Positions 18,690-52,965 of a stretch of 64,000 bases of DNA are shown in pieces. Position numbers and translations under genes: made by a program. The DNA is from Candidatus Hydrogenedentota bacterium (GTDB lineage Bacteria; Hydrogenedentota; Hydrogenedentia; Hydrogenedentales; GCA-2746185), in NCBI GenBank assembly GCA_947486375.1, contig CANKTP010000001.1, positions 17,118 through 81,117 of the forward strand, read 5' to 3'. Position 1 is the stretch's first letter. The number at the start of each line of letters is the position of its first letter. Below the pieces are notes generated by a model. That model saw only the letters and a program-made list of their open reading frames with translations, did no database searches and was not told the DNA's origin.

Positions 18690-18718
18690 TAGCACGGCAA
18701 TAGCGGCGTGAAACCTCC

Positions 18719-23050: not shown

Positions 23051-23086
23051 GCCGGGGTCTTGTGCCGGGCGCCCGGACTCGTTAGC

Positions 23087-26152: not shown

Positions 26153-26344
26153 GTGAGGGCTGTTTTGACGGTGCGGCGCAGGGTTTGAAAGCGCTGGGAA
26201 GGTGCGCATATGATTCGATTGCCGCGAATTGGGAAGCGAGAGGCTCGGAACAGCCGGAAGGCGCGAGTCGCCCGTGGCGATTTCGGGTTTAATTCCCATG
26301 GAGCATACGAATCCTTCTTGGAAATGATGGGGACACCGGTCTCA

Positions 26345-27133
26345 ATGCATTCGATAAATGGCGCGGCTTTGGCCCTGCTGGCGCTCGTGTGTTGTCCCTT
26401 CGCGCATGCGGGCGACGCCACCGAGTCGCCTTTCGTGGATTGGCAGTATCCGGCGTGGTTCGACGCGACGCAGGGGGTGACCGTGTCGTTTCGCGCGGGG
26501 ACCTTGGCCGGGGGGACTACGGAGACGGTTGTCGAGTACGTTTACTCGACCGGACCCAAGGGCCAGATAATCGCGGCGGCGGATCCTTCCGAGAACGGCC
26601 GTTTCGCCGCCGTAATACCGGGACTTCCGGAACCGGTGCTTGGGAATTTGGAAGTCACCGCGCGCGCCAAGGTGGACGGACGCGAGCTGCGCTCGCAGAC
26701 AGTCGCGATTGCGGCCGCGTACGTGAAAGAATTCGAGGTGACGGGGAATCCGCCGGTCGTGCTGCCCTACCCGCTCCTCGATGACGCTTATCTTGCGCGG
26801 TACATCCCCTGCTGCAATATCTTTGGCGGCGTCCTGGTAGGCAAGCGGATTCCGGTGTTGCCGACCGACACGCGAGACGGTCTCCCCGCGAGATTGGTGA
26901 GTGACTTCGCCGTACTCGAGCCCGACGGTCTCACCGAGTCGACTGCGGGGTTGCACATGCAATTTCGTTACGACCCCACCGCCGTCGAGGCGACGGGGGT
27001 GACTACCGTCGCATTGTATACGTGGGATATCCGGGCATGGCGTGAAGTCCGGAGTTACGAAATCGATACCCTCGCGGGGACGGTCGATTTCCATTGCCCG
27101 GCGGGCGGGATTTTTGTGCTCGGAGAAAAATAG
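26345..27133 (+). CDS. Hypothetical secreted protein
   Basis: The internal ATG at 26345 gives the signal peptide 'MHSINGAALALLALVCCPFAHAG'. No recognisable domain was found. Confidence 0.45.
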   Translation: MHSINGAALALLALVCCPFAHAGDATESPFVDWQYPAWFDATQGVTVSFRAGTLAGGTTETVVEYVYSTGPKGQIIAAADPSENGRFAAVIPGLPEPVLGNLEVTARAKVDGRELRSQTVAIAAAYVKEFEVTGNPPVVLPYPLLDDAYLARYIPCCNIFGGVLVGKRIPVLPTDTRDGLPARLVSDFAVLEPDGLTESTAGLHMQFRYDPTAVEATGVTTVALYTWDIRAWREVRSYEIDTLAGTVDFHCPAGGIFVLGEK

Positions 27134-27179: not shown

Positions 27180-27360
27180 ATCAAATGTTCGCTATGTTTG
27201 TCAGTGGAGAATCGAGAGTGAAGTCTCGTTGGCGATAATTATCGATAGTAACGTATCAATTATGTAGACAACTAAATGCAATTAAAGGCGTTGTGCTATA
27301 AATTTCTATACTGAGTATCAATGGAATGAAAATTGCTATGAAAAATGCGGGAAAGCCTGC
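27180..27360. promoter_or_regulatory. AT-rich island (roughly 35% GC) immediately upstream of the giant gene. It is a probable promoter/regulatory region.
   Basis: The run 'tatcaaatgttcgctatgtttgtcagtgg...ataattatcgatagtaacgtatcaattatgtagacaactaaatgcaattaaagg...ctataaatttctatactgagtatcaatggaatgaaaattgctatgaaaaatg' contrasts with the ~65% GC flanks. The palindrome AGCGCAtttcttgTGCGCT lies at about 27381-27399. Confidence 0.5.
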
Positions 27361-27451
27361 CTTGTGGTAGCATGAAGCGTAGCGCATTTCTTGTGCGCTG
27401 CGGAATCTGTATCATCGAATGTCGTGATTGGATCAAGTGGGAGGGGAAGAC

Positions 27452-30400
27452 GTGCGGCATCAGCCGGAATCCGAAACAGGGGGCGGTGTTTCGGGTTTTC
27501 GTGTGCCGGTCTTGGCGTTCACCCTTGTCGCCCTGCTTGGGGCCTTTGCCGCGTCTGCGGCAGAATACGCAACCGAGTTTTTCGAAGGAACGGATGTCGA
27601 TCTAGGCGGGCAGTCGTTCACGTTCACCCCGGATGCGTCTGGGGGGAACTATGCGGTTTGCCGGTCATTGGCGGCTGCCTTTCCTGCCGCAGTGGACGCT
27701 GCGGCCCAGATTGTCCTGGGCGACGACGACTTTGAGGAAATCGTCCTTCTAGACGGGGCGACGGTTGGATATTTTGGCCAATCGTACACGTCCGTTTTCG
27801 TCGGCAGCAACGGGTACCTGACGTTCGGCTCGGGTGACTGGGGTTATTTCGAGTCGCTCGAGGCCCACTTCGACTTTCCGCCGCGGATTTCGGCCCTGTT
27901 CGACGACCTGAACCCCACGGCGGGGGGCTCGGTCTTTTTTGAACAAGCGGCCGACCGTATCGCGGTCACCTTTCAAGACGTGCCCGAATATAGCGTGGGC
28001 GGGGCGAATAGTTTTCAGGTCGAGCTTTTCTTCAGCGGGACCATACGGATCACGTATTTGGGTCTGTCGACGCTGGATGGGCTGGCGGGGCTTTCGGCGG
28101 GGCAGGGGTTGCCGGACGATTTTCAAGAGAGCGATTTCTCAGGCCTGCCCATGGGGTGCGACGACCTCGCGATCTCGCCGCAGGCGCCGTTCGACTCTTA
28201 CGGCCTGGTGGGCGGCCCGTTCGGGCCGTCCGCAAAGGTATACACGCTTTCCAATGCGGGGACCCAGCCGCTCGATTGGAACGCCGGGACTATCTCGCCC
28301 GTGACGTGGATGTCCGTGGTGCCCACAGGGGGGACCCTAAATCCGAGCGAGTCGGTCGTGATAGCGGTCGCGCTCACGGGCGAGGCCGACACCCTGCCGG
28401 CAAGCGCTGTCCCTTATTCGACCCTAATCGCGATTACGAACGCGACAAGCGCGCGAACGAGTTTCCTCGAGGCGGGGTTGGAGATTCGTAATCCTCCGGG
28501 AGATCTCCTTATCCGGGACAATGTAATCCCCAGATATGACCGCCGGTTGTCATTCCGTGACGTCGCCGTCGGTTCGACGGGCGGAGTACCCAATTCGGCG
28601 CTCGGCGTCATTTCGTTGAAGAACCTCGGGCCGGGCGCCCTTACCATCGCCCGGATCGGCCTGATGCGGTATTTCGAGAGTTTCAGCGACGGACTCGCTT
28701 CCGGATGGACGCCCGACGTGGGCGACAACTGGGCGGCGGCGAACAGCATGTTCCGAGCCAGGAACACCTCGACCGATCCCGATTTCATGACCGCCGTCGA
28801 GTCGACCGAATGGAACGAGGACATCGCGGTCGAGGTCACCACGGTCCAACAAGGAAACGATTCGCATCCGCACGGGATAGCCATCGCGGCGTCGGAAGGT
28901 TTCGACGCCGGCGAATTCGACGGGACGTTGCACGCCACCGGGAGCGGTTATGTGTTTCTTATCGCGTCGAATGGCGCCTTTAGCGCGTGGAAGTTCGAGA
29001 ACGGAAGCCAGATTCCGCTAAAGGCGTGGAGCTATTCGGCGGCCATCGAATCCGTGGCGAACGACTTGCGCGTGACGGCCGTTGCCGAACCCGATGGCGG
29101 CGTCCGGTTTCGATTCGCGATCAACGGGACGCAGGCGTGGAGCGGGGAGGACCTCGAGCCGCTTCCCAACGGCCGCATCGCCCTCATTGGATATAGCGAG
29201 GGCAATAGCACCATCTATCGCTTCGACAACATTCTCGTCAGTCCGCCGGGGGCGGAAGATGGGGTATCGGCCTCGACGCCTGCTTTCGGTTTGCCAGCGG
29301 ACAGTCTCCCCGACTTGCCGTTGACCATCGAGGCCCAAGCCGAGGCGTCTTTCGACGTCCTGTTTCAGCCCGACCACGAGGGTGACTTCAGGGACGTGCT
29401 GGTAATCCTGAGCGACGACGCCGACGACCCGGACGCCCAGGTCTCGCTCGAGGGCGCCGGCGAATCCGTGATCGAAATCGTCCACGATCCGCTGCCCGAC
29501 ACCGTCGATTTGGGTCCGTATAGCGCGATCGCCGCCATCACGGCCGGCGCCGGGCTTCTCGAGTCGGAATTGTGGCTCTATTATCGAGTAGTCAGCGGCG
29601 GACCATTCGCGCGCTTGCCGCTTTCGGTCTTGGAGAGCGGAAGTTATTTCGCCGAGATTCCCGCCCAAGCATTGGGAACACAGGTCGAGTACTACATTTC
29701 GGCGAGTGACGTCATGGGGCATGTCCTTACGGATCCGTTTAGGGTCCCCGATCGGCTCCATTCATTCATCGTTGGGCTACCGTCCTTGGTCGTGACTGTC
29801 CTGGCCCCGACCCTGGATGTGGAGTTGGCGTCCGGCGACAGCCAGACGATCCCGGCGTCAGTCCGTCTCGACAACGTGGGTTATGGCGACTTGATTTGGA
29901 GCGTAGGCGAGACGGTCCGTTCGCTTGCCGGGACGATTCAGTCCGCGTCGCTGCAACCGTTTGCCGTGCGGCCGGGGACCGAGGATATTGCGACCAAGGG
30001 GGTGCAACAACCGGCCTCCGGCAGTCATTCCGGAGTCGAGTCGATCGGCGGACCTGACGAAGGGGGATACACCTATACCGACAGTATCGAGCCCGGCGGA
30101 CCGTCGGTCGGCCAGTATTGGGTCGAGATAAGCGAGACCGGCACGAACCTGGGCATGACAGACGACGTATACGCCTTTCCGATCCCGCTCGATTTCATCT
30201 TCGATTTTTACGGGACGGCGTACACGGAAGTCGCCGTGGGGTCGAACGGGCTGATTTATTTCGAGGACACCTACCTCGGGTACGGCAATTCGTGCATTCC
30301 GGGAATGAACTACTACGGCGTGAATCGATTTATCGCGCTTTATTGGGATGACCTATATCCATCTGGAACCAACAACGTCTATTGGCAGGTGACGGGAGAC

Positions 30401-33400
30401 GCGCCGAACCGCAAATTTGTGGTGCAGTGGCACCACGTGGCGCATTTCGGCGCGGGCGGCGATCTCACCGCCCAGGTCCAGCTATTCGAAAGCGGCGGAA
30501 AGATAGTGCTGCTCTACCAGAACGCCGCGCCCACGTTTGGCCAAAACGCGACCGCCGGAATCCAAGGCGACCCGGAGACGGGCCTGCAGTACCGCTGCGA
30601 CGCCCCCAACCTCGAGGGAGGCTTGGCCGTCCTGTTCCAGCGAGGGGTGGGTTGGCTCGATGAGGTCCCGACCTCGGGAAGAATCCCGGCGGGCGGGTCT
30701 TCGACCATCGACCTTGTCTTCGACGCCGCGGGCTTGCCGCCGGGCTATGAGGAGGGGGCCCGGCTCGTCTTCTCGAGCAACGACGCCGACACGGCGGTAC
30801 CGGACTTCGCCGATGCCAGCTTGCGCGTGGCGCAAGCGGTCCGAATTGACCACGATCCCCTGGGAGACACGGGCGACACGGCCGGGCCATACCCCGTTTG
30901 CGCGAATATCACGGCGGTCGAAGGCGTGGATACAAGCGCGCTTTGGGCGTATTACCGCGTCAACGGCGACGGGGCATTCCTCCCCGCACCCATGTCTAAC
31001 ACCGGCGGCGATAATTTTTGCGGTTCAATTCCGGGCCAACCGATTGGCACGGAAGTCGAATACTATCTTGTCGCGCAGGACATGCTTGGCGGGGTCACGC
31101 GCCATCCGCCACAAGCGCCGTCCCTCGTGCATGCGTTCCACGTTGTCGATGCATCGGGCCAAATTGAGGTGATCGACCCCGTCGAGCCGTCGAACGACCT
31201 GTTCCTGCCATTCTCGCCGCCGGCGCTGGAAATTGGGACAAGCGCGGTCCGGACAGTGACCATTCGGAATGCCGGATTGGCGGCGTTGACCATCACGGGA
31301 ATTCTCGATAGTTTCCTGTACCGCGAAAGTTTCGACGACGGACTTGCCCAAGGTTGGGTCGAGGCGGTCGACTCCCAGTGGAACGCGGTCGACGGGGAGT
31401 ATCGCGCATTGACGGACCAACCCGGCGTCTGGATGCAATCAACTTATGCCGCCGCGACTTGGGAAGACCTTTCCGCGAGCGTCGTGATGCGCCGCGCGGG
31501 CGACACCGGGAACGTGTCGGCGTTGGCGGTGCGCACAAGCCCGGATTTCGACTTGGGATCGTACAGCGGATCGGCTTATGCGGTCGGCATCGACGGTTCC
31601 GGCAATTTTTGGGTCATCCGGTTTAGCCCCGGGGCCTATGCGTGGCTTCAATCTTGGACCTTCTCGCCGTATCTGAACACCGGCGAGTCGGCAAATGAGG
31701 TCACCCTCAGCGTCGAGGGCCCCGCGATTGGAGTCTATTTCAACGGGAACTTGGCGTGGATGGGATTCGACTTGGGTCTTGCAGGCCCCGGCGGCATCGC
31801 CCTCGATGGCTACAGCGGCTATGGCTTGGCGACCACCCATGTATACGACGACTTCGAAGTAGGGCAGCCGTTGCCCGCCCCGGCCGGACTGAACGCCGCG
31901 CAGCAATGGTACAACGGACATGCAAACGAGGCGGGATCGCCGGAGCTCGCCCCGCCAAACGATTTCGTTCCGCCCTATCCCGGCGGCGATCCGGGGGCGC
32001 TGGCGGATGCGACCGAAGTGCCGGAGACGCTCCCCGATGTATTCGAGTTGCAGGCGGTGCCCGAGCTGCCGTTGTTGCTGGCGCCGGACGCATCGGTCAC
32101 CTTTGACGTGGCCTTCAACCCGGTCGAGACCGGCGAGTTCAGCGGGGCCGTCGTGATCGAGAGTGACGATCCGGTGTCTCCCGAAGTAATCCTCGTCCTG
32201 ACCGGAATGGCATCGGAAGCCCTCGCGCTCGCTCATGTGCCGTTGCCGGACACGACGAACGCCCTGGGGCCATACCCAGTCGAGGCTTTGGTGACGTCGT
32301 TGTATGGGGTCGCCTCGGCGACCCTGCGGTGGAGTATCGATGCGGGACAGAATTTCACCGAAGTCGAGATGGTCGAGGGACAGGCTGGTGTCCACTCGGG
32401 CAACATTCCGGGACAGGACTCCGGCACGACGGTGTTGTATTCGATCGAGGTGGTGGACAGCCTCGATGCCTCCGTGGCCGACCCCGTCGGGGGCGGAACG
32501 CATCAGTTCCAAGTGACGGGCATACCAAACCTTACGCTTTCCCCCTCCAATCTAGAATTCGAGATTCCCCATGGCGAAACGGAAACCCGCGAAATTACAT
32601 TGCAAAACACCGGGAATTGGCCGGCCACTTGGTCGCTTCGCGAGTTGTTTGCGCCAAACCTAAAGGCACTCGGCGTGAACGCGCCGCAAGGCGGTCCGGG
32701 CGCGGCGCCATTGGCGGGCGCGAATCGCCCGAAGCCCCCGGGCGGAGGTCCGGCGGTGGATTGGCGTACGGCACACGTCCCCGGTCGATTGCTCGTGAAG
32801 TTCGCGCCAACCAAGTCCGGCCTGTCGGCCAAGGCGTCTGTCCATGCCTTTGCGGGCGGCCGCCCGATTCACTCGTTCCGCTCGATTCCGTTGGATGTGG
32901 TGCAAATTCCGCGCGGGGCGAACCTCGCGGCGATGGCGGCGGCATACCGCGCCCGCCCGGAAGTCGAGTACGCGGAACCCGATTACATCGTGCAGGCCGA
33001 CGTGTTCCCCGACGATCCCGCCTTCGCGCAACAATGGGCACTGCACAATACCGGGCAGACCGGCGGCCTCGAGGATGCCGACATCGATGCCCCCGAGGCG
33101 TGGGACACGCAGACCGGTAGCGCTACCGTGGTCGTGGCCGTCATCGATACCGGGATCGACTATACCCACCCGGATCTGGCCGCCAACATTTGGATCAACG
33201 AGGCCGAGGCCAACGGGACGCCCGGGCTCGACGACGATGGCAATGGCATCGCGGACGACCTCCACGGGGCGCGCTGGACCGATGGGACGGGTGCGCCGAC
33301 CAGCGGCGACCCGATGGACGGCAATGGCCACGGAACGCACGTGGCGGGGACTATCGGCGCGGTGGGCAACAACGGCACCGGTCCCGCCGGCGTGGCGTGG

Positions 33401-45400: not shown

Positions 45401-48400
45401 AATGCCGCGCCGGTGCTCGCGGGCATCGGCCCCAAGGCATTCACGGAGAACCAGGCGGGTAGTTTCACTGTCACGGCGAGCGATGTCGACGGCGACACGC
45501 TGACGTATGGCGTGTCCAATGCCCCGGAGGGCGCCGTCTTCGATCCCGGCACGCGCACGTTCTCCTGGACGCCGGACTTTGACAACGCCGCGGCGTACCC
45601 CGGCGTGACGTTCACCGTGACGGACGACCGCGCGCCTTTCAGAAGTGACACGGAGACGATTACGATCACGGTACAAAACACGAACCGGCCGCCCGTATTG
45701 AATTCCATCGGCGATCAAGCGTTCACCGAAGGGCAGTTCGACAGATTTACAGTGACCGCCACGGATCCGGACGGCGACGATTTGACCTACACCGCCATCG
45801 GATTGCCGTCCGGCGCGGCGCTCGACTCCGTCACCGGCGAATGCTCGTGGTCGCCCGGTTTCGAGTCCTTGCGAAGCTACTCGGGCGTCCAATTCATCGT
45901 GACGGACGACGGATTGCCAGTGCCCCTCCAGGCCTCCGGGCCGATAACGATCACGGTGGCGAATACGAACCGGGTGCCGTTTCTGGATTCAGTCGAAGAT
46001 CAGTCCGTGGCCGAAGGAGAAACGCTTTCCTTCACGGTGACTGCCAGCGATTTCGATGGTGGCACGCCGGTCTTAAGCGTCTCAAACCTACCCGGCGGCG
46101 CCACCTTCGATCCGGCCACCGGAAACTTCGCCTGGACCCCGGGGACAACCGATGCGGGCCCATACGAGGTGACCTTCATCGCCACCGACGGCGAGGGGCT
46201 GGCGGGCACCATGAGCGTTACCATTACGGTCACCAATGTGAACCGCGCACCCTCGTTGGATCCGATCGATAACCAATCGATTGCGGAGGGAGAACTCCTT
46301 ACATTCACCCTCTCGGCGACCGATCCCGACGACGATACGTTGACCTTCGGCGCGACGGATTTGCCCGGCGATGCCACGTTGAACGCGACGACCGGCGTGT
46401 TCGTATGGACACCGGGTTACGAGGATGCCAGCGAATATCCCGTCGAGTTTACAGTCTCGGATGGCGCTGCGCCGCCCGTTGCGGGGGCCGTCGTCATCAC
46501 GGTGTCGAATACGAATCGCGCCCCCGCGTTGTCGCCGATAGGAAGTCGGGCGGCGGGCGAGGGGGAAACCCTGACCATCGTTCTCTCGGCTTTCGATCCG
46601 GATGGCGACGCCATCGCGTATGCCGCGTTCGGCCTTCCCGAAGGCGCGCAATTCGATCCCGGGACAGCGACGTTCACTTGGACTCCGGGATTCGGCGAAT
46701 CGGGGAACTATGGCGTCGAGTTCGCGGTCACGGACAACGGTACGCCCGTTCTCAGCGCCTCCGAGGCGATTACGATTTCGGTGGGCGATGTGAATCGCCC
46801 GCCCGCGCTCGAGGCAGTCGGCGACCGGCAGGCCTTGGAAGGCGAACGCCTGGCATTAACGCTCACGTCCGTCGATCTCGACGCGGAAGACACGATGACC
46901 TACCTCATGACCAACGCGCCTACCGGGGCGGAACTCGATCCGGTGACCGGATCGTTTGGTTGGACGCCCGGATTCGACGACGCCGGGGTGTATACGGGAG
47001 TTGTGTTCACGGTAGCCGACGACGGAACGCCCATCGAATCGGACTTCGAGTCCATCACGATTACGATCATCAACTCGAACCGCGCGCCGGAGTTGGCCGA
47101 AGTCGCGGATCGAGAAGTGGCCGAGGGCGCGCCCCTCGAGATTGCGCTTGGCGCGAGCGATCCGGATTCGGGCGATGCGCGGACATTCGCCATGTCTAAT
47201 ACACCACCCGGCGCCTCACTCAATCCCATCACCGGCGTGTTTGCGTGGACGCCGGGGTTTGACGATGCCGGGAGGTACGACGTCGCGTTCACGGTGACCG
47301 ACGATGGAACGCCGGCGCCCCTGGATGACGCGGAACTCGTCACAATTACGGTCACCAATACAAACCGTCCGCCGACATTGGCCGCCATCGCGGACAGCGA
47401 GATTTTGGTTGGGCAGCGGCTCGAGATTGCGCTGGATGCCGTCGATCCGGATTCGACCGATCGATTGACGTTTGGCGTCACGGGTCTTCCGCCGGGCGAG
47501 GGTTCCATCGATCCAATCACGGGTGTGTTCGCATGGACACCCAGCGCCACGGGCACGTATGAGGCGATGTTCACCGTGACCGACGACGGCACGCCGGGGC
47601 CGCTCCAAGCATCCGAGACGGCCACGATCGCGGTGAGCGCCTTGCCGGTGGCGGCGTTCAGCGCGGACGTGCGCTTGGGAACCGCCCCGCTGACGGTCCA
47701 ATTCACGGATGAATCGGTATCCGGCAGCGCGGAGATTACTTCGTGGAATTGGAACTTCGGCGATGACACGTTCAGCGAGGAACAACACCCGGGACACGAT
47801 TACGCCTCTGACGGAGTGTACACCGTGTCGTTGACGGTGACGACCGCCACGGGTACCGACGCCGAGATCAAGACCGGCTATATCACCGTGACCGGCGACC
47901 CGGCGTCGCCAACGGCAGCATTCAGCGCGGACGTCCTCTTCGGTCCCGCCCCCCTCACGGTTCGATTCTCGGACGAGTCAGCCCCGGGCACCGCCCCAAT
48001 TACGGCGTGGGCGTGGAACTTCGGCGACAGCGGGCCGATCGGCGCCGATCCGGATCCAGAACATGTATTTGCGTTGGAGGGCGTGTATTCCGTGTCGTTG
48101 ACGGTGACGACCGCAGGGGGCATCGATCTCGAGATCAAGACCGCCTACATCACGGTGGGCAACGATCCGGTGCCGCCCGTGGCCGACTTCAACGCGGATG
48201 CGCGGTTCGGCCCGGCCCCCCTGTCGGTGCAGTTTGTGGACGAGTCAAGACCGGGCAGCACGGGCATAACCGAATGGTTGTGGAACTTCGGCGATGCCGC
48301 CACCAGCACGCAACCGAACCCAAGGCATGTCTATGAGTCCGACGGCGTGTACACGGTATCGTTGACCGTGACGACGGGCGTGGACGACAACACCGCGACG

Positions 48401-50452
48401 AGAACCGGATTTATTACGGTAAGCAGCCTCCCCGTGCCTCCCACGGCTGCATTCAGCGCGAATCCGACTTCCGGAACCGCGCCGCTCGCCGTGGAGTTCG
48501 CCGACGAGTCTGGCCCGGGAAGCGAATCGATTACCGGGTGGGAGTGGGACTTCGGCGACGGCACGAGCAGCAATCTCCAGAACCCGGCGCATGTCTATGA
48601 AGTGGCGGGCGTCTATCCGGTTTCATTGGCCGTCACGACGAGCGTGGACGAGGACACCGAGGTCAAGAACGGTTTTATCACCGTGCGATCCGCGGCGGGA
48701 CCGGCGGCGGACTTTAGCGCGAGCCTCACCTCGGGTCCCGCGCCCCTCACCGTGCAATTCACGGACGAGTCGGCGGAGGGGAACGCGGAGATTGCCTCGT
48801 GGGCCTGGACCTTTGGCGACACCGGCACAAGTGCGGAGCCGAACCCAGGCCATGTATACGACGCCGAGGGGGTCTATACCGTCTCATTGACCGTCACGAC
48901 CCCGTTGGGAACCGACACCGAGACGAAATTCGGATTCATCGAAGTATTGGGTTCGGGCGGGGAGCTATGCGACGTCTATCTCCAAATCCACGAGCAATAC
49001 GACGCATTCCGCTCCCACTTTGGGATCGTGGACGATGACCTCGACGACGATGGGTTGCCCGACGAAGCGCTGCTCGATCTGCTTCAAGGGTTGCTGTGCC
49101 CGGACCTCACGAAGGCGACGGTCGCGGATGCGGCCCTGCGCGCCGCCTTTGACACGAACCTCGCCGAACTGATTGCGCGGAACGATCCGGCGGTCGCCGA
49201 GTATCGCGAGCTACTGGCGCTGCTCCTGGCCGTGTCCGCAGAGAGCCGCGACGCCGTCATCGCCGAACTTGCCGCCGACGGCGTTACGCTTGCCGCCTCT
49301 GGCTTCGATACGTTGACGGGCGAGGACGCCCTATACGACGGAGGGGCGGACTTGGACGGCGACGGCGTGTCCAATGCCGACGAGTACGATCTCTTCGAGG
49401 CAACCTGCGATATCTGTAGCATCGAGGACTTGGTGGATGCCGTCAACAATCCCCTCAACGTCGGCGCCGAGCTGAGCATTTGCGAATCCCTGGGCGAAGT
49501 CGAAACCCAGTACGCGGCCTTTGTCGCCGCGTTCGCCGCCTCCATCGATCGAAACGACGACATCGACAACGATTTGCTTCCCGACGCCCATGCGCTTGCC
49601 CTGGTCGAGTTCACCTGCGGATTGGTCGACTGCGGGCTGTCGGGAGATTTGCGCCTGGCCTACGCCGGAAATTTGGCCGCCCTGGACGGCGAGAATCCGG
49701 CCGCCGTGACCGCGCTCGAACCATACCGCAACGTCTTAGCTGCGCTGATGACCCTCGGCGACGCCACCGTTCAAGCGGTGAAGGACATTGTCGCGACCCA
49801 GGCTTCCCTCACCGGCGCCTACACCGCCGTCGAGGGCGCTACCGTGGGGTGTATCGCGAACGCCGGGGCCGGGGTCAGCGAACTCTATTCAGCCGCCGGC
49901 GACTTCGACGGGGACGGATTCACGAACTTGGACGAATACGACAACGTAGCGGCCCGTGCCGGAACGACGATTGCCGATTTCGTCGAGGCGGCAACGGATC
50001 CCGGCTCGGATGGGTCCGCCGACAATCACGTCCCTTCGTTGAATGCCGTTGGCGACCAACAGGTCAAGGAAAAACAGCCACTGACATTCGTGATTTCGGG
50101 AGGCGATCCGGATGCCGGCGACTCATTAACGTACAGCGCCACCAACCTTCCCCCGGGCGCCTCGTTCGATCCGGCGACTCGTACATTCGCCTGGACACCC
50201 GCGGCGGGCGATGCAGGGACCTATCCCGGCGTGGTGTTCAAGGTTGCCGACCATGCCGGCCTATCGGACTCGGAATCGATAGCCATACTTGTCACCCCGG
50301 GCGGGTGCGGCTCCGCCGCAGATGGGCACGGCGGCGCCCCGGCGCCCCAAGGCGACCTTGAGTTGTCGCTGACGATCGCCGCTTTCCTGTATGCGTCGAG
50401 AAGGCGCGGCGGCTCCGGCGCACACCGCGAATCGGATGTAGCGCCCCGATAG
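27452..50452 (+). CDS. Giant (about 7,670-aa) mosaic cell-surface protein with many repeated modules and an embedded I9-S8 subtilase.
   Basis: A single uninterrupted 23-kb ORF; the track start at 27428 is TTG. A GTG at 27452 is preceded by GGGAGGGG and gives '...GFRVPVLAFTLVALLGAFAASAAEY' (signal-like). The domains were recognised by eye. I9 propeptide + S8: 'VAVIDTGIDYTHPD' (Asp), 'HGTHVAGTIGAVGN' (His), 'GTSMATPHVAGVAALL' (Ser). Five PKD domains: 'FGPAPLTVQFTDES...WNFGD....PNP.HVY...GVYTVSLTVTT'. Nine cadherin-like domains: 'NRPP.L..IGDQ...EG..L.FTVTATDPDGD.LTY......PGA.FDP.TG.F.WTPG'. Ca-binding loops: 'DLDGDGVSNADEYD', 'DFDGDGFTNLDEYD'. The C-terminus is '...LELSLTIAAFLYASRRRGGSGAHRESDVAPR'. 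Confidence 0.8.
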   Translation: MRHQPESETGGGVSGFRVPVLAFTLVALLGAFAASAAEYATEFFEGTDVDLGGQSFTFTPDASGGNYAVCRSLAAAFPAAVDAAAQIVLGDDDFEEIVLLDGATVGYFGQSYTSVFVGSNGYLTFGSGDWGYFESLEAHFDFPPRISALFDDLNPTAGGSVFFEQAADRIAVTFQDVPEYSVGGANSFQVELFFSGTIRITYLGLSTLDGLAGLSAGQGLPDDFQESDFSGLPMGCDDLAISPQAPFDSYGLVGGPFGPSAKVYTLSNAGTQPLDWNAGTISPVTWMSVVPTGGTLNPSESVVIAVALTGEADTLPASAVPYSTLIAITNATSARTSFLEAGLEIRNPPGDLLIRDNVIPRYDRRLSFRDVAVGSTGGVPNSALGVISLKNLGPGALTIARIGLMRYFESFSDGLASGWTPDVGDNWAAANSMFRARNTSTDPDFMTAVESTEWNEDIAVEVTTVQQGNDSHPHGIAIAASEGFDAGEFDGTLHATGSGYVFLIASNGAFSAWKFENGSQIPLKAWSYSAAIESVANDLRVTAVAEPDGGVRFRFAINGTQAWSGEDLEPLPNGRIALIGYSEGNSTIYRFDNILVSPPGAEDGVSASTPAFGLPADSLPDLPLTIEAQAEASFDVLFQPDHEGDFRDVLVILSDDADDPDAQVSLEGAGESVIEIVHDPLPDTVDLGPYSAIAAITAGAGLLESELWLYYRVVSGGPFARLPLSVLESGSYFAEIPAQALGTQVEYYISASDVMGHVLTDPFRVPDRLHSFIVGLPSLVVTVLAPTLDVELASGDSQTIPASVRLDNVGYGDLIWSVGETVRSLAGTIQSASLQPFAVRPGTEDIATKGVQQPASGSHSGVESIGGPDEGGYTYTDSIEPGGPSVGQYWVEISETGTNLGMTDDVYAFPIPLDFIFDFYGTAYTEVAVGSNGLIYFEDTYLGYGNSCIPGMNYYGVNRFIALYWDDLYPSGTNNVYWQVTGDAPNRKFVVQWHHVAHFGAGGDLTAQVQLFESGGKIVLLYQNAAPTFGQNATAGIQGDPETGLQYRCDAPNLEGGLAVLFQRGVGWLDEVPTSGRIPAGGSSTIDLVFDAAGLPPGYEEGARLVFSSNDADTAVPDFADASLRVAQAVRIDHDPLGDTGDTAGPYPVCANITAVEGVDTSALWAYYRVNGDGAFLPAPMSNTGGDNFCGSIPGQPIGTEVEYYLVAQDMLGGVTRHPPQAPSLVHAFHVVDASGQIEVIDPVEPSNDLFLPFSPPALEIGTSAVRTVTIRNAGLAALTITGILDSFLYRESFDDGLAQGWVEAVDSQWNAVDGEYRALTDQPGVWMQSTYAAATWEDLSASVVMRRAGDTGNVSALAVRTSPDFDLGSYSGSAYAVGIDGSGNFWVIRFSPGAYAWLQSWTFSPYLNTGESANEVTLSVEGPAIGVYFNGNLAWMGFDLGLAGPGGIALDGYSGYGLATTHVYDDFEVGQPLPAPAGLNAAQQWYNGHANEAGSPELAPPNDFVPPYPGGDPGALADATEVPETLPDVFELQAVPELPLLLAPDASVTFDVAFNPVETGEFSGAVVIESDDPVSPEVILVLTGMASEALALAHVPLPDTTNALGPYPVEALVTSLYGVASATLRWSIDAGQNFTEVEMVEGQAGVHSGNIPGQDSGTTVLYSIEVVDSLDASVADPVGGGTHQFQVTGIPNLTLSPSNLEFEIPHGETETREITLQNTGNWPATWSLRELFAPNLKALGVNAPQGGPGAAPLAGANRPKPPGGGPAVDWRTAHVPGRLLVKFAPTKSGLSAKASVHAFAGGRPIHSFRSIPLDVVQIPRGANLAAMAAAYRARPEVEYAEPDYIVQADVFPDDPAFAQQWALHNTGQTGGLEDADIDAPEAWDTQTGSATVVVAVIDTGIDYTHPDLAANIWINEAEANGTPGLDDDGNGIADDLHGARWTDGTGAPTSGDPMDGNGHGTHVAGTIGAVGNNGTGPAGVAWDVRLMGLKFLTDSGSGSISDAVSALEYAIEMGAHVSSNSWGGGGFSQAMADMIDAARAANQLFIAAAGNESQDNDANPHYPSSYELDNILSVASSDQADAMSWFSNHGATSVDLAAPGSDIYSTWPGGGYNTISGTSMATPHVAGVAALLLGSAPDTPYSDLKAWLLSSADVLPAWSGLTLSGARLNASAALGNSGKPWIDEDPIEGTLASGESKTIAVTVDTTRLENGFSDTAILSIAGDPDGAIEAGVSLNVAGYVAFDHDPLVDTTASGDYEVCAMITALSGSIVRTELFWSVDGGAFTAIPMTGSGGGNLDCAAIPAQAVGSDVCYYIEAEDDQGHVQRRPFEGAVAPICFQVQGIPNLEVALPEPGGLDFFLNPGAAETRGIVITNSGTWPVDWSLGLPGAGVLTTTIVDLPAISAIPRAGISGVLPEGWASSGRPSSREAVRSLIRADATPVDLLILSPNSVPSTLQAGLEAFEDIGALDYFDAAISPPIPADLAPYGVVIVANGFYWADAEATGNVLASYVDSGGKVIVAEAGFDGFWGYGLQGRFADESYGPFVGGLIDQSIQRTLGAHDADHPIMAGVESLADSVVTLVDLQPGAQWVAEWGDGVPLVAVMDFSSVVGINMFPFDYGNISGDYISLFHNAVVWLADGGTSNGWMSMGSASGRLDPGASVEVLITADATGLHDGFHACRGLELSGDPDGVLDVTACLTVYNGALFLGHSPLEDTSNEGPYPVETTIVSASGVSRADLYWSTDGGAVFATTPMIPISGDSYGASIPDQPVGTIIDYYLEAEDGIGNIAAEPDTAPALLHRFEVVSTPPDIFVTDSVVPADDGIVSFDPPIPIGSSSVESITVENLGEQPLTLSGASVAYRVSDNNSPQGPAFDWIEIGVSGTNLALIDDSYSYPISLPFGFEFYGNEYTDIAVGSNGAVYFEDKYFAFANSCIPGSGAVDVSRFIALYWDDLSPSGIDNVYYQIVGEAPSRRLVVEWSNVPHVCCGGSLTAQVQLFESTGHILYLYSETDPGEGEGATAGIQDSPSQGLQYSCDDSVLAPGLAVLFQPERYFALENLPDFPAVLDQFDSLSFDVRFQSPDIGNFLGAVSIRSDDPDAPEVQVDVAGSAVDVIVIGHNPLGDTSLAGPYSVEATIAAPHGLVRADLLWSVDGGNSFTSTLLSIVSGDLYEASVPGQPVDTVVDYYIEAEDSMGSVRREPADAPFATHRFSVVPPSGDIAVSDTALPADDRWIPYSPPIVGPGDSVLHTITVDNAGLGNLVITSIRAGLYYVENFEDGLPQGWTESVDSHWTVTGGEYRAQAGFPGVSMQSRYDAASWDNLSARALIRRTGNSSNVSVLAVRTSPDFDYATFAGSAYATGINVDGTYWVIRFSPGGFSWLQSWTFSPYLNTGEATNDVMFSIDGDAINVYFNGNLAWSGFDSGHGEAGGIALVGYSGSLFEIAHFYDDVEVGLPVPPVEGLSAAQAWYNNRPLEGGTPAEAPPGAAIAEFPGTAGGPIVGDALSAESVMPAFVTEGLPSLPAVLGPGQSFAFEVRFQPEAQGEFTETLFINSDDPDTPALEVGLTGTAGDLFGIEHGPLGDTINDGPYVLGATITAANGIARADTIWTADGGATFSSVSMANVSGDHYVAAIPGGHPDGTVIGYYIEVEDAVGNIDTGPGGAPVELYEFTIEAPPGDLAVFDSVDPVDDRLLPFSPPTVTVGSSVVETITVLNDGLGPLTIGSVLGGLFYAENFNDDLAQGWVETVDAQWNVSGGAYAAREDVLSTWMQASYDTAPWENFSASVRMSRTATASNTSAFAVRTSPDFDIQTSTGSAYATGILGDGTFWVIRFSPGGYAWLQSWTFSAYLNTGEAVNDVAMSVSGDAIAVYFNGHLAWSGSDSGIPDAGGIALMAYNNPEGIYLYDDIEVGLPIPSADGLSEAQAWYNSHPLEGGSPWEAPAESMVAAFPGELGDPMASDNRTSGGELGLESVGYSALFNSGTDGFTADPVMGGGLWHQTAGCEAASGDHSTPGALYYGVDGACNYDAGITAGAVVSPPIALPGDATATLTFAYFLETERAPSYFDMASVEVSSDGGVTYTLVAHNDANAGAALIEETEGAWRQLTVNLAAFAGDEIVIRVGFATVDSGANTYRGFYIDDLSVDLDSTQPFEFEGLPALPAVLAPGESFVFDVRFQPIVDGPFTGVVHIESDDPETPSARVDLSGMAQFAIVIDHTPLGAAAADGPYAVDAAILSQAALVRSEVFWSTDGGANYASVPMAIVSGDLYQALIPGQPVGTQIKYYIEVEDSLGLVIAHPAAAPGETHQFDIVIYPGDIEVTDSVEPPDDFSAPFSAVNIGASATETMTIRNNGLGPLSIENISEAAAPGMNSAPDSVGGPDAGGYTFIDNYEPGGPAFDWIDVTGTGTNLNLVDESSSPPIAIPFAFEFYGSAYDAFVVADNGAIYFEGGYFGYANACLPDGGVSGIGAFIAPYWADLYPGGTNNVYYQVVGDAPNRRLVIEWYNVYSVIGGETVTAQVQLFENGGDILFLYEDAYPVYGGYAAAGIQGDAVTGISYSCQQGDLYPGLAVLFEPGDAPGEGEGEGPSAFFIEGLPEFPATLAPGDSLSFSLRFEPIVAGEYSGTVSIESDDPSSPVIETNLTASGFEAFGVAHDPLEGAYDFAPYAICLELSAFEGLNPAELWLYYSIDGGVTYAGPLPLILSGEGVYCADIPAQLAGATVHYYAVLRDALGRVGTFPLGSPWSFEVAGTPDFEADHPDEIVFVLNPGASQTQTITVGNTGPQATAAGEWHIASDVLLAYAGGPKPDELRRQLEAFPEVARVEAFDASRSTPTLDELEDFNVVIVLSADSFADPLAMGDVLALYAAGGGKIIQTLATFESSAAWELGGAFARDYSPFTSGEFQFRYMQLGDYDLAHPIMASIGFIEAEFAVGVGLAEDAEPVADWDDGTPAIATRGGNVVAMNVLPFAQGEWQADANVQQLLRNAIEWLNRQWLSVFPVSGNLEIGSETVVSLTASAEGFSDGDETTTTLVIAGDPHPDGNIERTVRLIVDEYLSIVHEPLENTPDAAGPYLVDATITAENGVNESKLKLYYSVNRGPIEEVALQPLGLGAYRGEIPGQPFGTLIEYYLSAQNAIGQLLTNPIEAPDDRHAFRVFDPSSNLFAATFETGGDGFVFDNGAGTGGGLWHHTTACQAVGAEGALYYGIDASCSYDAGNTQGFAVSPPVVLPPPGQSATLTFSYFLETEGLPSSYDRASVEVSTDGGASWGLVAHNYAGAAAGLVLLQDPTASWRRATVNLSAFAGSEIMLRLGFATGDSIANGHKGFYVDDLSIDLAPDCEVPANPSPADAEANVAVNVTLAWDQAKALAEYLAALRAGETGVESLVRGSDETPLFPPVPSETPPVVVPDALASVAIFQNLAPWGTASNQVVLTANGISHQIFGSADMGYVDLAGFDKVIVSSVQDAQFYAALAANRDWFEDYVISGGLLDLHLASYTSAPADGLELPGGFVTQSLLSSSVSIADPFHPIVTVPHAISHAELQGWNYSTHGIFSSAPLDAVPIVNETGSGLPCAMELALGAGRILATLQTVEWIGSSPNYFENMTLHELGGCAPSYDVYFGTDPNSLARVYTGLEQPYCDFPSLSPGTVYFWQVDAIRCCGATLGPVWSFTTGTGQLSVDAFEADDSPQSASPIALNGVPQERTLDRPGDVDWAIFFAAAGQAIHVDATASAPGAQLFVQLYRLEGIALVAESVPLGNRDVSASIEWTADASGGYLVRVATATPAATGASAAYRLDVWVESIIPSTLIVRAVDEATGEPIDGVEIIIDDLANGYFTNEDGLFTLPMEPGPHTVCANGGAVGFTATCESPANVDVSDSEQEVVQFELDPDAKLEVTPAGLNFGRVYLGSTVERLVTVTNVGTGTRVITGDALWNALGPIRIMDGSHYVLDPGQSSQVIVEFAPLAPAITQGTMEFTTGVRGSETIVVSGTGRENAAPVLAGIGPKAFTENQAGSFTVTASDVDGDTLTYGVSNAPEGAVFDPGTRTFSWTPDFDNAAAYPGVTFTVTDDRAPFRSDTETITITVQNTNRPPVLNSIGDQAFTEGQFDRFTVTATDPDGDDLTYTAIGLPSGAALDSVTGECSWSPGFESLRSYSGVQFIVTDDGLPVPLQASGPITITVANTNRVPFLDSVEDQSVAEGETLSFTVTASDFDGGTPVLSVSNLPGGATFDPATGNFAWTPGTTDAGPYEVTFIATDGEGLAGTMSVTITVTNVNRAPSLDPIDNQSIAEGELLTFTLSATDPDDDTLTFGATDLPGDATLNATTGVFVWTPGYEDASEYPVEFTVSDGAAPPVAGAVVITVSNTNRAPALSPIGSRAAGEGETLTIVLSAFDPDGDAIAYAAFGLPEGAQFDPGTATFTWTPGFGESGNYGVEFAVTDNGTPVLSASEAITISVGDVNRPPALEAVGDRQALEGERLALTLTSVDLDAEDTMTYLMTNAPTGAELDPVTGSFGWTPGFDDAGVYTGVVFTVADDGTPIESDFESITITIINSNRAPELAEVADREVAEGAPLEIALGASDPDSGDARTFAMSNTPPGASLNPITGVFAWTPGFDDAGRYDVAFTVTDDGTPAPLDDAELVTITVTNTNRPPTLAAIADSEILVGQRLEIALDAVDPDSTDRLTFGVTGLPPGEGSIDPITGVFAWTPSATGTYEAMFTVTDDGTPGPLQASETATIAVSALPVAAFSADVRLGTAPLTVQFTDESVSGSAEITSWNWNFGDDTFSEEQHPGHDYASDGVYTVSLTVTTATGTDAEIKTGYITVTGDPASPTAAFSADVLFGPAPLTVRFSDESAPGTAPITAWAWNFGDSGPIGADPDPEHVFALEGVYSVSLTVTTAGGIDLEIKTAYITVGNDPVPPVADFNADARFGPAPLSVQFVDESRPGSTGITEWLWNFGDAATSTQPNPRHVYESDGVYTVSLTVTTGVDDNTATRTGFITVSSLPVPPTAAFSANPTSGTAPLAVEFADESGPGSESITGWEWDFGDGTSSNLQNPAHVYEVAGVYPVSLAVTTSVDEDTEVKNGFITVRSAAGPAADFSASLTSGPAPLTVQFTDESAEGNAEIASWAWTFGDTGTSAEPNPGHVYDAEGVYTVSLTVTTPLGTDTETKFGFIEVLGSGGELCDVYLQIHEQYDAFRSHFGIVDDDLDDDGLPDEALLDLLQGLLCPDLTKATVADAALRAAFDTNLAELIARNDPAVAEYRELLALLLAVSAESRDAVIAELAADGVTLAASGFDTLTGEDALYDGGADLDGDGVSNADEYDLFEATCDICSIEDLVDAVNNPLNVGAELSICESLGEVETQYAAFVAAFAASIDRNDDIDNDLLPDAHALALVEFTCGLVDCGLSGDLRLAYAGNLAALDGENPAAVTALEPYRNVLAALMTLGDATVQAVKDIVATQASLTGAYTAVEGATVGCIANAGAGVSELYSAAGDFDGDGFTNLDEYDNVAARAGTTIADFVEAATDPGSDGSADNHVPSLNAVGDQQVKEKQPLTFVISGGDPDAGDSLTYSATNLPPGASFDPATRTFAWTPAAGDAGTYPGVVFKVADHAGLSDSESIAILVTPGGCGSAADGHGGAPAPQGDLELSLTIAAFLYASRRRGGSGAHRESDVAPR
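32790..33980 (+). other. Embedded peptidase inhibitor I9 propeptide + subtilisin-like S8 serine protease domain inside the giant ORF. It has an intact D/H/S triad.
   Basis: I9-like segment: 'GRLLVKFAPTKSGLSAKASVHAFAGGRPIHSFRSIPLDVVQIPRG...EVEYAEPDYIVQA'. S8 motifs: 'DTGID', 'HGTHVAG', 'GTSMATPHVAG'. Confidence 0.75.
45400..47640 (+). repeat. Array of 8 tandem ~280-nt coding repeats (cadherin-like/He_PIG-type domains) within the giant ORF. A 9th copy lies at about 50020-50300.
   Basis: Eight consecutive ~93-aa units each begin 'NR[AP]P.L' and contain 'F[TA]VTA[TS]D.D.D.LT[YF]...P.GA..D..TG.F.WTPG'. Confidence 0.7.
47640..48950 (+). repeat. Array of 5 tandem ~270-nt coding repeats encoding PKD domains within the giant ORF
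   Basis: Five units of the form 'A[AD]F.A.....GPAPL.V.F.DES..G...I..W.W.FGD........P.HVY...GVY.VSLTVTT......E.K.G.ITV'. Confidence 0.75.
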
Positions 50453-50478
50453 ACTCCCCACACAGGATGACTATTGAG

Positions 50479-50520
50479 CGTCCCCCTGGATGGGTTCGAG
50501 GGGGACGTTTCTTGCTTTTC
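50479..50520 (+). terminator. Rho-independent terminator after the giant gene
   Basis: CGTCCCCC-(13-nt loop)-GGGGGACG is followed by TTTCTTGCTTTTC, starting about 27 nt after the stop codon. Confidence 0.65.
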
Positions 50521-52871: not shown

Positions 52872-52965
52872 GATGGCCAACCGCGATACCGGGTTTGGAA
52901 ACATGCGTGATAGGATTATCAACGGGGTCTTCCGGGGCATGCCGGAAGCACGGAAAGGACCAGCG

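Follow-up and report, generated by a model that had tools for sequence, protein, structure and literature searches.

A predicted giant surface protein of a Candidatus Hydrogenedentota bacterium that appears to carry a subtilase and other head domains inserted in split Ig domains

Several described systems share parts with the protein that is the subject of this study. Deseasin MCP-01 is a collagenolytic protease of deep-sea Pseudoalteromonas whose PKD domain binds and swells collagen (PMC11294657); it is a protein of ~66 kDa in which a P-domain and one PKD domain lie directly behind the catalytic domain (PMC11294657, Table 1). The peptidylarginine deiminase of Porphyromonas gingivalis (PPAD) contains an immunoglobulin superfamily (IgSF) domain, a 106-residue sandwich located between the catalytic domain and the type IX secretion system (T9SS) C-terminal domain, with a topology common to gingipains (PMC4487231). 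Much longer proteins have been described by West-Roberts et al. from Omnitrophota; these exceed 30,000 aa and contain numerous transmembrane helices and, for the most part, SecA-DEAD domains (bioRxiv 10.1101/2023.11.21.568195). Here we describe a gene encoding a protein of 7,666 aa, which we refer to as the giant protein, in a 64-kb stretch of DNA from a Candidatus Hydrogenedentota bacterium (contig CANKTP010000001.1, positions 17,118 to 81,117; the whole of the stretch analysed, 64,000 nucleotides, is called the window). An earlier note on this DNA, made from the sequence without database searches (the original prediction), had described the product as a mosaic surface protein, and nearly all of its by-eye domain calls survive tests with Pfam, sequence profiles and structures. 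The features of the gene and its product are listed in Table 1.

The family of the giant protein appears to differ from the giant surface proteins described so far in that unrelated domains have been inserted repeatedly in one loop of an Ig scaffold; a narrow search of the searchable literature found no description of such an arrangement. The giant protein contains many matches to the HYDIN/ASH-type Ig domains of Pfam, for which the NCBIfam name is "choice-of-anchor D". Those HYDIN/choice-of-anchor D matches (Pfam, NCBIfam) that lie 3' of the larger domains, which we call heads, always start at about profile position 56, and the sole match that precedes a head covers profile positions 29-57. 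When the protein was searched with a local Ig hidden Markov model (HMM) built from 140 uninterrupted domains of other proteins, matches to the N-half (~12-43) and to the C-half (~45-101) strictly alternated, each pair bracketing one head. Bracketed in this way are ConA-like modules 1-3, ConA-like module 4 together with MAM-like module 1, NIDO-like modules 2-4, the S8 protease including its prodomain, and both ThuA-like modules. A single uninterrupted choice-of-anchor D domain is present, at aa 5882-5978, and scores 47 bits with the local HMM.

Heads were then removed in silico and the flanking Ig halves joined, with swapped-order constructs serving as a control. In six units the joined halves give a continuous alignment over one domain, and five of the six score 52-63 bits as against 47 bits for the native domain; the spliced S8 unit scores 27 bits over HMM positions 1-100 and aligns to positions 15-93 of the NCBIfam profile. 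In the swapped-order controls only one half aligns. Moreover, the NCBIfam model choice_anch_D (NF012200) gives an unbroken alignment over the junction in 8 of 9 constructs, with two above its 45-bit cutoff (48.7 and 58.5 bits) and four others at 27-44 bits. The native, unspliced halves match the same model separately, and the spliced ThuA-like 2 construct gave no NCBIfam match. The insertion point falls at about position 43-50 of the ~100-residue Ig fold, and the heads that it receives are 190-440 aa long. Several heads also have a long linker on one side (54-56 aa with GLSxAQxWYN after ConA-like 2 and 3, 33 aa before S8 and 45 aa before ThuA-like 1), which fits a chain that returns to the insertion point. 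The original prediction had treated the modules as beads on a string. The bracketing and the splicing point instead to nesting, and indicate that choice-of-anchor D Ig domains take up the heads in one and the same loop, rather than standing to either side of them, so far as can be judged from sequence. Ten split-Ig units would thereby alternate with IgSF spacers. (Note that ConA-like heads 2-4 are each followed by a conserved Pro/Gly-rich segment of ~55 aa with the motif GLSxAQxWYNxxPxEGGxPxEAP, which may be a structured return strap as opposed to a floppy linker.)

ThuA-like domains found elsewhere (213 in 150 other proteins) are flanked by both Ig halves in 31 of the 213 cases and by the better-conserved C-half in 66 more, and the bracket pattern was found around none of 64 NIDO-like modules of other phyla. 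Thus, nesting would seem to be a trait of this giant-protein family and not of the NIDO domain. We entertain a broader proposal, tentatively and with slightly less than even confidence, in which the choice-of-anchor D Ig domain is a universal socket that takes up unrelated domains of 190-440 aa (lectin-like, NIDO, ThuA-like, MAM and even an entire subtilase together with its prodomain) at one loop, giving a bottle-brush rod with an Ig/IgSF backbone and heads that project sideways. On this proposal, duplication and shuffling across the giant-protein family of uncultured bacteria (L008, L010, L093 and others) would have worked on cassettes, each consisting of an Ig with its insert plus a spacer; moreover, autocleavage of the prodomain would nick the chain, with the complemented split Ig holding together the resulting pieces of ~1,850 and ~5,800 aa. 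If the nesting is true, one small Ig fold tolerates many large insertions at the same loop, about ten times per chain and in a manner conserved in the family, and this would be relevant both to the evolution of protein architecture and to the engineering of domain-insertion scaffolds.

The spacers between the split-Ig units correspond to a ~100-aa module that had been noticed but left unnamed, at about 12 copies; the module is real, and ten copies were found with a profile. Searched against the Protein Data Bank (PDB), the spacer profile matches the C-terminal IgSF domain of PPAD over its full length (E=3.5e-12). An AlphaFold2 (AF2) model of the spacer has a pLDDT of 93.5 and superposes on 6i0x in Foldseek with a TM-score of 0.79-0.81 and an rmsd of 2.0 A. 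By sequence as well as by model, the spacer corresponds to the domain defined as PPAD residues 360-465 (a 4+5-stranded sandwich), and the model thus identifies the module as an IgSF beta-sandwich of the PPAD type. The likeness to PPAD and gingipains extends to other parts of the giant protein, since relatives of its other modules occur on gingipain-type peptidases (P0006, P0007) and on an M28 peptidase (P0008). In PPAD and gingipains a single IgSF domain precedes the T9SS C-terminal domain; the giant protein uses ten IgSF domains as spacers, and neither Pfam nor NCBIfam detected a T9SS C-terminal domain in it.

Two kinds of head had been recognised by eye as NIDO-like and LamG/ConA-like, with four modules each; the counts hold, and the fold calls are probably right. 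All four NIDO-like modules match Pfam NIDO (PF06119) below its 25-bit threshold, the best at 15.7 bits (E=0.016). A gingipain-type homolog, P0006, reaches 27.1 bits (cutoff 25) in the part of its sequence aligned with module A, and the score of P0007 is 24.6. Module 1, which is the most N-terminal and is not nested, likewise has a sub-threshold Pfam NIDO match and is 50-52% identical to segments in relatives L080 and L086. The NIDO-like module is widespread, with 176 confirmed loci, the best 80 of which span Bacteroidota, Chloroflexota, Myxococcota, Planctomycetota, Verrucomicrobiota and others. For the four ConA/LamG-like modules, one of the window copies matches Laminin_G_3 (E=0.015). In the wider family of 13 members, which includes homologs from 9 metagenome contigs, PF06439 is matched by 7 of 13 (best 4.7e-6), Laminin_G_3 by 4 of 13 and GH59_C, the GH59 lectin domain, by 3 of 13. 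PF06439 is the 3-keto-disaccharide hydrolase family, formerly DUF1080, and all three families belong to what we take to be a single ConA-like clan, which supports the assignment of the fold. No sequence match to the ConA-like modules was found in the PDB. The NIDO-like and ConA-like assignments are thus sub-threshold and transitive ones.

The two ThuA/GATase1-like modules belong to a family that is large, although the window copies match nothing in Pfam. An exhaustive profile search of 1.84 billion representatives returned 3,320 clusters at 50% identity (E<=1e-3); most of the matches listed are large proteins, some with up to 10 copies, and the module is found together with NIDO, HYDIN Ig, BACON_2 and T9SS tails (proteins P0017-P0166). 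Other members of the family match Pfam ThuA, DUF7408, GH42M, DUF4159, DUF4350 and IFT52 GIFT, with P0039 and P0041 just above the Pfam ThuA cutoff. (A word-indexed homolog search with the ThuA-like alignment returned nothing, and one with the Fn3-insert region described below returned Fn3 fragments only.) An AF2 model of ThuA-like head 1, made from an alignment of 50 sequences, has a pLDDT of 92.3, and in Foldseek it superposes on 4pxy (a B. uniformis protein annotated 'putative ThuA-like'; TM 0.67), 3rht (0.66) and 5fms (0.61); the best PDB matches, which span TM 0.61-0.68, include the IFT52 GIFT domain and a Planctomyces GATase1-like protein. No cysteine is present in aa 2425-2645 or aa 4785-4990. 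Because there is then no glutaminase nucleophile, the modules are not class-I glutamine amidotransferases, and the model suggests likeness at the level of a flavodoxin-like alpha/beta fold in modules that would be non-catalytic as amidotransferases. They differ from ThuA, GATase1 and GIFT proteins in this lack of Cys, in being predicted to be extracytoplasmic and in being embedded in a giant chain. Thus, the amidotransferase-like label of the original prediction stands for the fold and falls for the activity; of the three copies that it listed, two are borne out by the model and the family, and the third (aa 5395-5605) is not supported (hhalign probability 26%; deep family profile iE 0.04, -0.2 bits) and is treated here as an insert within an Fn3-like domain. 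Two MAM-like jelly-rolls had also been proposed, and both exceed the Pfam gathering threshold; the corresponding NCBIfam model, choice_anch_J, gives 24.9 and 28.3 bits on MAM-like 1 and 2 (cutoff 30). Two large families are missed here by current Pfam models, namely the extracellular ThuA-like module and the DUF1080-like ConA module.

The one enzymatic head is a subtilase. Peptidase_S8 is matched at E=9.6e-58 (196 bits against a cutoff of 21.8 in Pfam), and the catalytic triad is intact and in order, with D1899 in VIDTG, H1960 in HGTHVAG and S2120 in GTSMATPH. The call of an intact protease of the I9+S8 type was thus right as to S8; the prodomain, in contrast, matches Fervidolysin_NPro-like (E=1.8e-11, 44.7 bits against a cutoff of 21), and Pfam Inhibitor_I9 was not reported for it at E<=0.01. 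Compared with deseasin MCP-01 (PDB 3vv3), the catalytic domain gives E=5.6e-106 and 359 bits at ~57% identity over 322 aa, whereas the next solved subtilase gives 163 bits. The giant protein therefore carries an intact deseasin-type S8 subtilase. Like MCP-01 of Pseudoalteromonas sp. SM9913, with which it shares the conserved triad, the giant protein pairs a protease with PKD domains and is (by prediction) secreted. It differs from MCP-01 in that the protease is one head in 7,666 aa, apparently set into an Ig domain, with ~4,500 aa separating it from the PKD array downstream.

The whole protein has just two hydrophobic windows: the signal peptide and one beta-strand-like stretch. The hydrophobic segment of the signal peptide (aa 11-38) has no Cys and no lipobox, and the signal is therefore not of the lipoprotein type. 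At the other end, the layout of the C-terminal tail recalls tripartite sorting signals with a Cys, such as MYXO-CTERM, and makes it a possible sorting or anchor signal; the tail gives a weak NCBIfam match to the end of the myxosortase-dependent M36 model (myxo_dep_M36, E=0.0024), and L012, a relative from Myxococcales, has a similar tail. No PEP or LPXTG motif and no Por_Secre_tail match were found in the giant protein. The protein is strongly acidic, with a pI of 4.05, 1,012 Asp+Glu against 239 Lys+Arg, and Lys at only 0.5%. Because cytoplasmic neighbours have a pI of 5-7, this acidity is peculiar to the giant protein and is not proteome-wide, and a salt-in halophile cause was ruled out on the same grounds.

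Pfam was run on ten overlapping tiles of the whole giant protein, and in the C-terminal third both He_PIG (with seven stretches in one tile) and PKD score above their Pfam thresholds. The tandem He_PIG/cadherin-like domains repeat with a period of ~91-95 aa, and the PKD array appears at the DNA level as five copies spaced by 261-267 nt; the counts given earlier, 8+1 cadherin-like and five PKD domains, are therefore correct. The Cys- and Ca-loop-containing region that had been picked out by eye lies at aa 7170-7520 and does hold Cys residues and DxDxDG loops (loop type DGDGxxNxDEYD). This region is internally duplicated (aa ~7200 against aa ~7400, 34% identity), and Pfam, NCBIfam and the PDB yielded no relative of it. 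Upstream of the stalk, the Fn3-like domain with its own insert is 44% identical over 330 aa to the corresponding region of P0003 and 48.5% identical to that of L085. As for the GEGEGEG linkers that had been reported, one GEGEGEG run does occur, at aa 4573, and GEGEG at aa 3012, being part of a NIDO module, does not serve as a linker. (A candidate pre-peptidase C-terminal (PPC) domain at aa 5666-5800 was rejected, with no Pfam or PDB support.)

Taken together, we consider it fairly probable that the giant protein is a Sec-exported, cell-associated rod with side-mounted heads that captures and digests insoluble protein or glycoprotein. A secreted adhesin combined with a protease had been suggested from the outset, and the signal peptide, the intact S8 domain, the lectin-like and Ig-like modules and purifying selection all support it. 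The N-terminal ~5,300 residues would form the rod, built in alternation from choice-of-anchor D Ig domains and PPAD-type IgSF domains, with the heads displayed laterally. The nested heads would comprise four ConA-like, three NIDO-like, two non-catalytic ThuA-like and one MAM-like module and one complete S8 protease with its prodomain, and outside the nested array would lie the fourth NIDO-like module, at the N terminus, and the second MAM-like module, after IgSF-10. The C-terminal third would be a stalk made up of a CarboxypepD_reg domain, one Ig domain, eight He_PIG domains, five PKD domains, the Cys/Ca-loop region and a ninth He_PIG domain, and would adjoin the possible C-terminal anchor. 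We infer that the protein is expressed and located at the cell surface, where binding-type heads, if they do bind ligands, and PKD domains would hold the cell or the enzyme on insoluble proteinaceous or glycoprotein material, and the single protease would digest the bound material locally. Candidate substrates are particulate organic nitrogen, a collagen-like matrix and the surface of another cell. A cell-tethered protease of the deseasin type amid lectin-like and PKD modules would be a plausible tool against particulate organic nitrogen in an uncultured lineage.

Several observations count against this rod-with-heads reading. Within the nested array, one Ig half is weak or undetected in the ConA-like 1, NIDO-like 2 and ThuA-like 2 units, and the nested three-dimensional fold is deduced solely from colinearity. 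No window copy of the NIDO-like or ConA-like module matches Pfam at the curated threshold, and at 57% identity the substrate specificity of MCP-01 is not transferable. At the C terminus, no sorting-signal model of NCBIfam matches the giant protein at E<=0.1; the hydrophobic stretch is short (14 residues), contains Glu and has a 14-aa tail beyond it; and relative L010 ends without a Cys/hydrophobic/RRR tail. Anchoring would thus be the weakest step in reading the product as a surface protein, with cell association as a presumption.

An alternative, which we regard as unlikely, is that the giant protein is a self-processing polyprotein, in which the subtilase cuts off its own prodomain (severing the chain at ~aa 1850-1890), and perhaps cuts at more sites, so as to yield several secreted proteins. 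Maturation of S8 proteases normally cleaves the junction between prodomain and catalytic domain. The prodomain of the giant protein is situated in mid-chain, directly before an intact catalytic domain, and this implies at least one autocatalytic cut; moreover, S8 and C39 domains have been proposed to cut other giant proteins (bioRxiv 10.1101/2023.11.21.568195). However, the chain has a single protease head, and we noticed no recurring motif resembling a cleavage site where modules meet. Were the protease nested, the pieces made by cutting behind the prodomain would still be held by a shared beta-sandwich. The colinear order that is kept across relatives also fits a single unit, though it is compatible with processing too.

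Less probable still, in our estimation, is a mainly structural or adhesive role (as an adhesin, a component of the biofilm matrix or an S-layer-like element) with a protease that serves for maturation only. Such a role would account for the more than 40 Ig-like, He_PIG and PKD domains, and it gains from the extreme acidity together with DxDxDG loops, which are typical of Ca-stabilised adhesins, and from the two further large Ig/BACON proteins encoded nearby. However, the nearest relative of the protease is an enzyme dedicated to extracellular degradation, and a single copy with many different heads is unlike self-assembling lattice proteins. The idea of an S-layer-like scaffold, which formed part of the original prediction, is unsupported, in that no SLH or other known S-layer domain was found with Pfam or NCBIfam.

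Relatives of the giant protein were found on other contigs. The one on metagenome contig Ga0315285_10000296 (L093) is 48% identical over 1,020 aa, and L083, L086, L008 and L010 are 36-38% identical over 870-1,075 aa and colinear. A ConA-like head lies between an Ig N-half and an Ig C-half in L083, L086, L087, L089, L092 and L093; S8 is flanked by both Ig halves in L086, and a single half was detected next to it in L083, L087 and L093. L010 (JBLIRP010000023.1, 3-13775) encodes at least 4,591 aa and L008 (JBLIRN010000013.1, 4520-13975) at least 3,152 aa; both are unclassified MAG contigs in which a locus boundary truncates the frame, and their repeating unit consists of an Ig N-half, a head (ThuA, NIDO or S8), an Ig C-half and a complete Ig, in up to ~9 repeats. 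L010, L008 and L093 share with the giant protein the set of S8, ThuA-like, NIDO-like and ConA-like modules and the head-inside-Ig brackets, with 36-48% identity along colinear stretches of 900-1,020 aa; L010 and L008 differ from it in that their spacer is not an IgSF domain but a complete choice-of-anchor D Ig, and in having more ThuA-like heads. (The S8 segment of L010 and L008 is 36-37% identical to the giant protein over ~900 aa.) By sequence, the giant protein thus belongs with other large mosaic subtilases, present in several metagenomes, to a family that is so far uncharacterised. One close partial homolog is labelled "Planctomycetota bacterium". The closest homolog from the genome collection, L003 (CAZKZX010000206.1, 3.6 kb), has a NIDO-like module at 57% identity and a ConA-like module; its contig was binned as "uncultured Methanomicrobia archaeon" and is probably a mis-binned bacterial contig, since all other relatives are bacterial.

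Giant adhesins of the RTX type that use a type I secretion system (T1SS) have C-terminal RTX nonapeptide repeats and a T1SS signal, and lack an N-terminal Sec signal peptide. The giant protein differs from these adhesins (LapA, SiiE and MpIBP type) in having an N-terminal Sec-type signal, and no RTX/HemolysinCabind match was found in any of its Pfam tiles. Judged by these features, it is neither an RTX/T1SS adhesin nor a T9SS cargo. It shares with the Omnitrophota giants (Archaeovorin-type and dockerin-type) a very long, mostly extracellular mosaic of attachment and hydrolytic domains; some of those proteins have S8, and their domains are identifiable only via structure prediction. A contact-dependent attack or predation device of the kind proposed for Omnitrophota seems to us very improbable here. 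A link to predation has been drawn for giant proteins that combine peptidase, lectin-like and attachment domains (bioRxiv 10.1101/2023.11.21.568195), and the heads of the giant protein could bind foreign cell envelopes. However, at 7,666 aa it is 4-10 times smaller than those giants, it has no multiple transmembrane segments and no SecA match in Pfam (SecA-DEAD being likewise absent), and its neighbours are ordinary housekeeping genes. Proteins of such size had been called rare, and this was overstated: among the 10,000 longest BV-BRC proteins, the 7,478 left after removal of gapped sequences are all at least 10,624 aa (bioRxiv 10.1101/2023.11.21.568195), and colinear relatives of the giant protein occur in several metagenomes. 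A mosaic surface protein of 7.7 kaa, with functions that are predicted, is not exceptional by itself.

The gene itself is intact. Its frame is open on the + strand from the first possible TTG (27428) to the stop at 50452 with no internal stop, and the gene caller of the source contig chose the same GTG start and the same 7,666-aa product, as expected for the single uninterrupted 23-kb open reading frame that had been described. In random codons of the same base composition, the probability of 7,666 without a stop is ~1e-98. GC3 is 0.76-0.78 in the three thirds of the giant gene and 0.75-0.87 in its neighbours (murC, ftsQ, ftsZ and others). Paralogous modules have dN/dS of 0.14-0.51 with dS of 0.8-2, near saturation, which implies that the duplications are old and that the copies are under purifying selection. 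The source assembly is a short-read MEGAHIT assembly with k=141 (91,114-bp contig ENA ERZ27280197 k141_1955775, run ERR5863202). The best internal DNA repeat of the gene is 300 nt long at 68-72% identity, and the remaining internal repeat families are 62-81% identical to their own reference copies; because the internal repeats are so diverged, an assembler at k=141 had nothing to collapse or mis-join. The stretch 27452-50452 is therefore one intact, real gene under selection. Although a short-read contig and an internally repetitive protein might raise the suspicion of an assembly chimera or a decaying pseudogene, the chance of either is negligible, with a collapsed repeat or chimera ruled out by a maximum DNA repeat identity of 72%, a pseudogene or chance frame ruled out by the stop-free length, the uniform GC3 and dN/dS, and colinear homologs present in independent assemblies.

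Table 1 Features of the giant gene, its product and its flanks (window positions; aa, residues of the giant protein)
Feature	Residues	Position	Strand	Remarks
AT-rich island upstream of the giant gene		27200..27350	+	GC 30-38% against ~62% background
Weak sigma-70-like match in the AT-rich island		27212-27239	+	TCGAGA-16-GATAAT, 9/12
Ribosome-binding site GGAGG and GTG start codon (27452)		27440..27454	+	Read from sequence; gap GGAGG-GTG 7 nt
Whole gene		27452..50452	+	7,666 codons + stop
Predicted Sec-type signal peptide	1-37	27452..27562	+	Hydrophobic core, then ASA|AE
NIDO-like module 1, diverged, N-terminal, not nested		27629..28180	+	27% identical to copy 2
Putative split Ig hosting ConA-like 1	352-672	28505..29467	+	N-half weak; 15.5 bits across junction
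Ten PPAD/gingipain-type IgSF spacers		29465..42907	+	105-138 bits each
IgSF spacers 1-5	672-777, 1128-1235, 1589-1691, 2239-2343, 2704-2806			
IgSF spacers 6-10	3110-3214, 3568-3672, 4206-4306, 4641-4744, 5046-5152			
Candidate split Ig hosting NIDO-like 2	796-1126	29837..30829	+	Only C-half recognisable
Putative split Ig hosting ConA-like 2	1243-1588	31178..32215	+	62 bits local HMM, 48.7 choice_anch_D
Pro/Gly-rich segments after ConA-like 2-4	1475-1530, 3454-3511, 3911-3966	31874-32041, 37811-37984, 39182-39349		
Putative split Ig hosting subtilase		32525..34171	+	Prodomain aa 1770-1846, catalytic domain ~aa 1892-2155
Putative split Ig hosting ThuA/GATase1-like 1	2344-2702	34481..35557	+	Spliced Ig support weak
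ThuA/GATase1-like modules	2436-2641, 4788-4985	34724-35386, 41804-42421		
Putative split Ig hosting NIDO-like 3	2814-3110	35891..36781	+	52 bits local HMM; 32.8 bits, profile 29-107
Putative split Ig hosting ConA-like 3	3222-3567	37115..38152	+	60 bits local HMM, 37.3 choice_anch_D
Putative split Ig hosting ConA-like 4 and MAM-like 1	3681-4204	38492..40063	+	58 bits local HMM, 44.4 choice_anch_D
MAM-like 1 (within ConA-like 4 unit)		38492..40063	+	InhA-like_MAM 38.1 bits against 26.9 cutoff
Putative split Ig hosting NIDO-like 4, then GEGEGEG run	4315-4640	40394..41371	+	63 bits local HMM, 58.5 choice_anch_D
Candidate split Ig hosting ThuA-like 2	4743-5047	41678..42592	+	Both halves weak
MAM-like 2 (choice-of-anchor J), after IgSF-10		42917..43432	+	InhA-like_MAM 31.7 bits against 26.9
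Fn3-like domain interrupted by ~210-aa insert		43439..44446	+	Nested arrangement conserved in P0003, L085
CarboxypepD_reg-like domain, then uninterrupted choice-of-anchor D Ig		44855..45385	+	41 bits, profile 15-104
Eight tandem He_PIG/cadherin-like Ig domains (stalk)		45404..47641	+	E=4.6e-62, 206.9 bits
Five tandem PKD domains		47654..48946	+	PKD_4 E=1.6e-63, 211 bits
Ala/Leu/Glu/Asp-rich region	7170-7520	48959..50011	+	8 Cys, three DxDxDG loops, internal duplication
Ninth He_PIG domain		50024..50296	+	He_PIG E=2.4e-15
C-terminal tail		50297..50449	+	GGCGS, 15-aa spacer, 14-aa hydrophobic stretch (LELSLTIAAFLYAS), RRR, 14 more residues
Intrinsic-terminator-like hairpin		50476..50519	+	Core stem CGUCCCCCU/AGGGGGACG, then UUUCUUGCUUUU

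The flanks of the gene had been described as an AT-rich promoter island and a strong terminator, and both the island and a terminator-like hairpin are real, though the sigma-70 match in the island is weak. The terminator-like hairpin lies just 3' of the stop codon and has a 12-bp GC-rich stem followed by a U-tract; the 78-nt stretch that contains it has a folding energy of -30.2 kcal/mol (z = -2.5). A consensus terminator scan missed the hairpin because its loop is 11 nt. On the basis of these flanks it is plausible that the giant gene forms its own transcription unit. The genomic context is chromosomal, with ordinary housekeeping genes: GGT, an aminotransferase, hisG, surE and a GAF Ser/Thr kinase upstream, and murC, ftsQ, ftsZ, a pilT-like gene and dapA downstream. 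Rfam gave no match anywhere in the 64-kb window, the housekeeping proteins fall in singleton clusters, and the genome is not represented in GTDB (best hit 57%).

Other genes of the window, all on the + strand, deserve brief mention. Two encode large, acidic proteins of surface type. The first (29-3325) is open at the window start and has at least 1,098 aa, HYDIN-type Ig and a pI of 4.2; the second (3394-9432; ~2,010 aa) has two BACON_2 domains, He_PIG and HYDIN Ig, and a lipobox (LAGC) follows the Met at nt 3394. The organism thus appears to invest heavily in giant Ig-rich envelope proteins. The GAF-domain Ser/Thr protein kinase (23060-26152) has ~590 N-terminal residues that match no family, and between it and the giant gene there is just one small secreted open reading frame (26210-27133), with no Pfam match. 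Downstream, 50659-54222 is the end of a division and cell-wall cluster, comprising murC, ftsQ and ftsZ; ftsA and ddl do not lie between them, and the ftsQ-ftsZ gap is only ~95 nt. Finally, 18719-20191 encodes a Glu/Ala/Lys-rich, coiled-coil-looking protein (~400 aa) with a C-terminal MshEN domain, and this gene explains both the strong AT skew (0.22) at 18-20 kb and a long antisense shadow open reading frame at 18652-20166.

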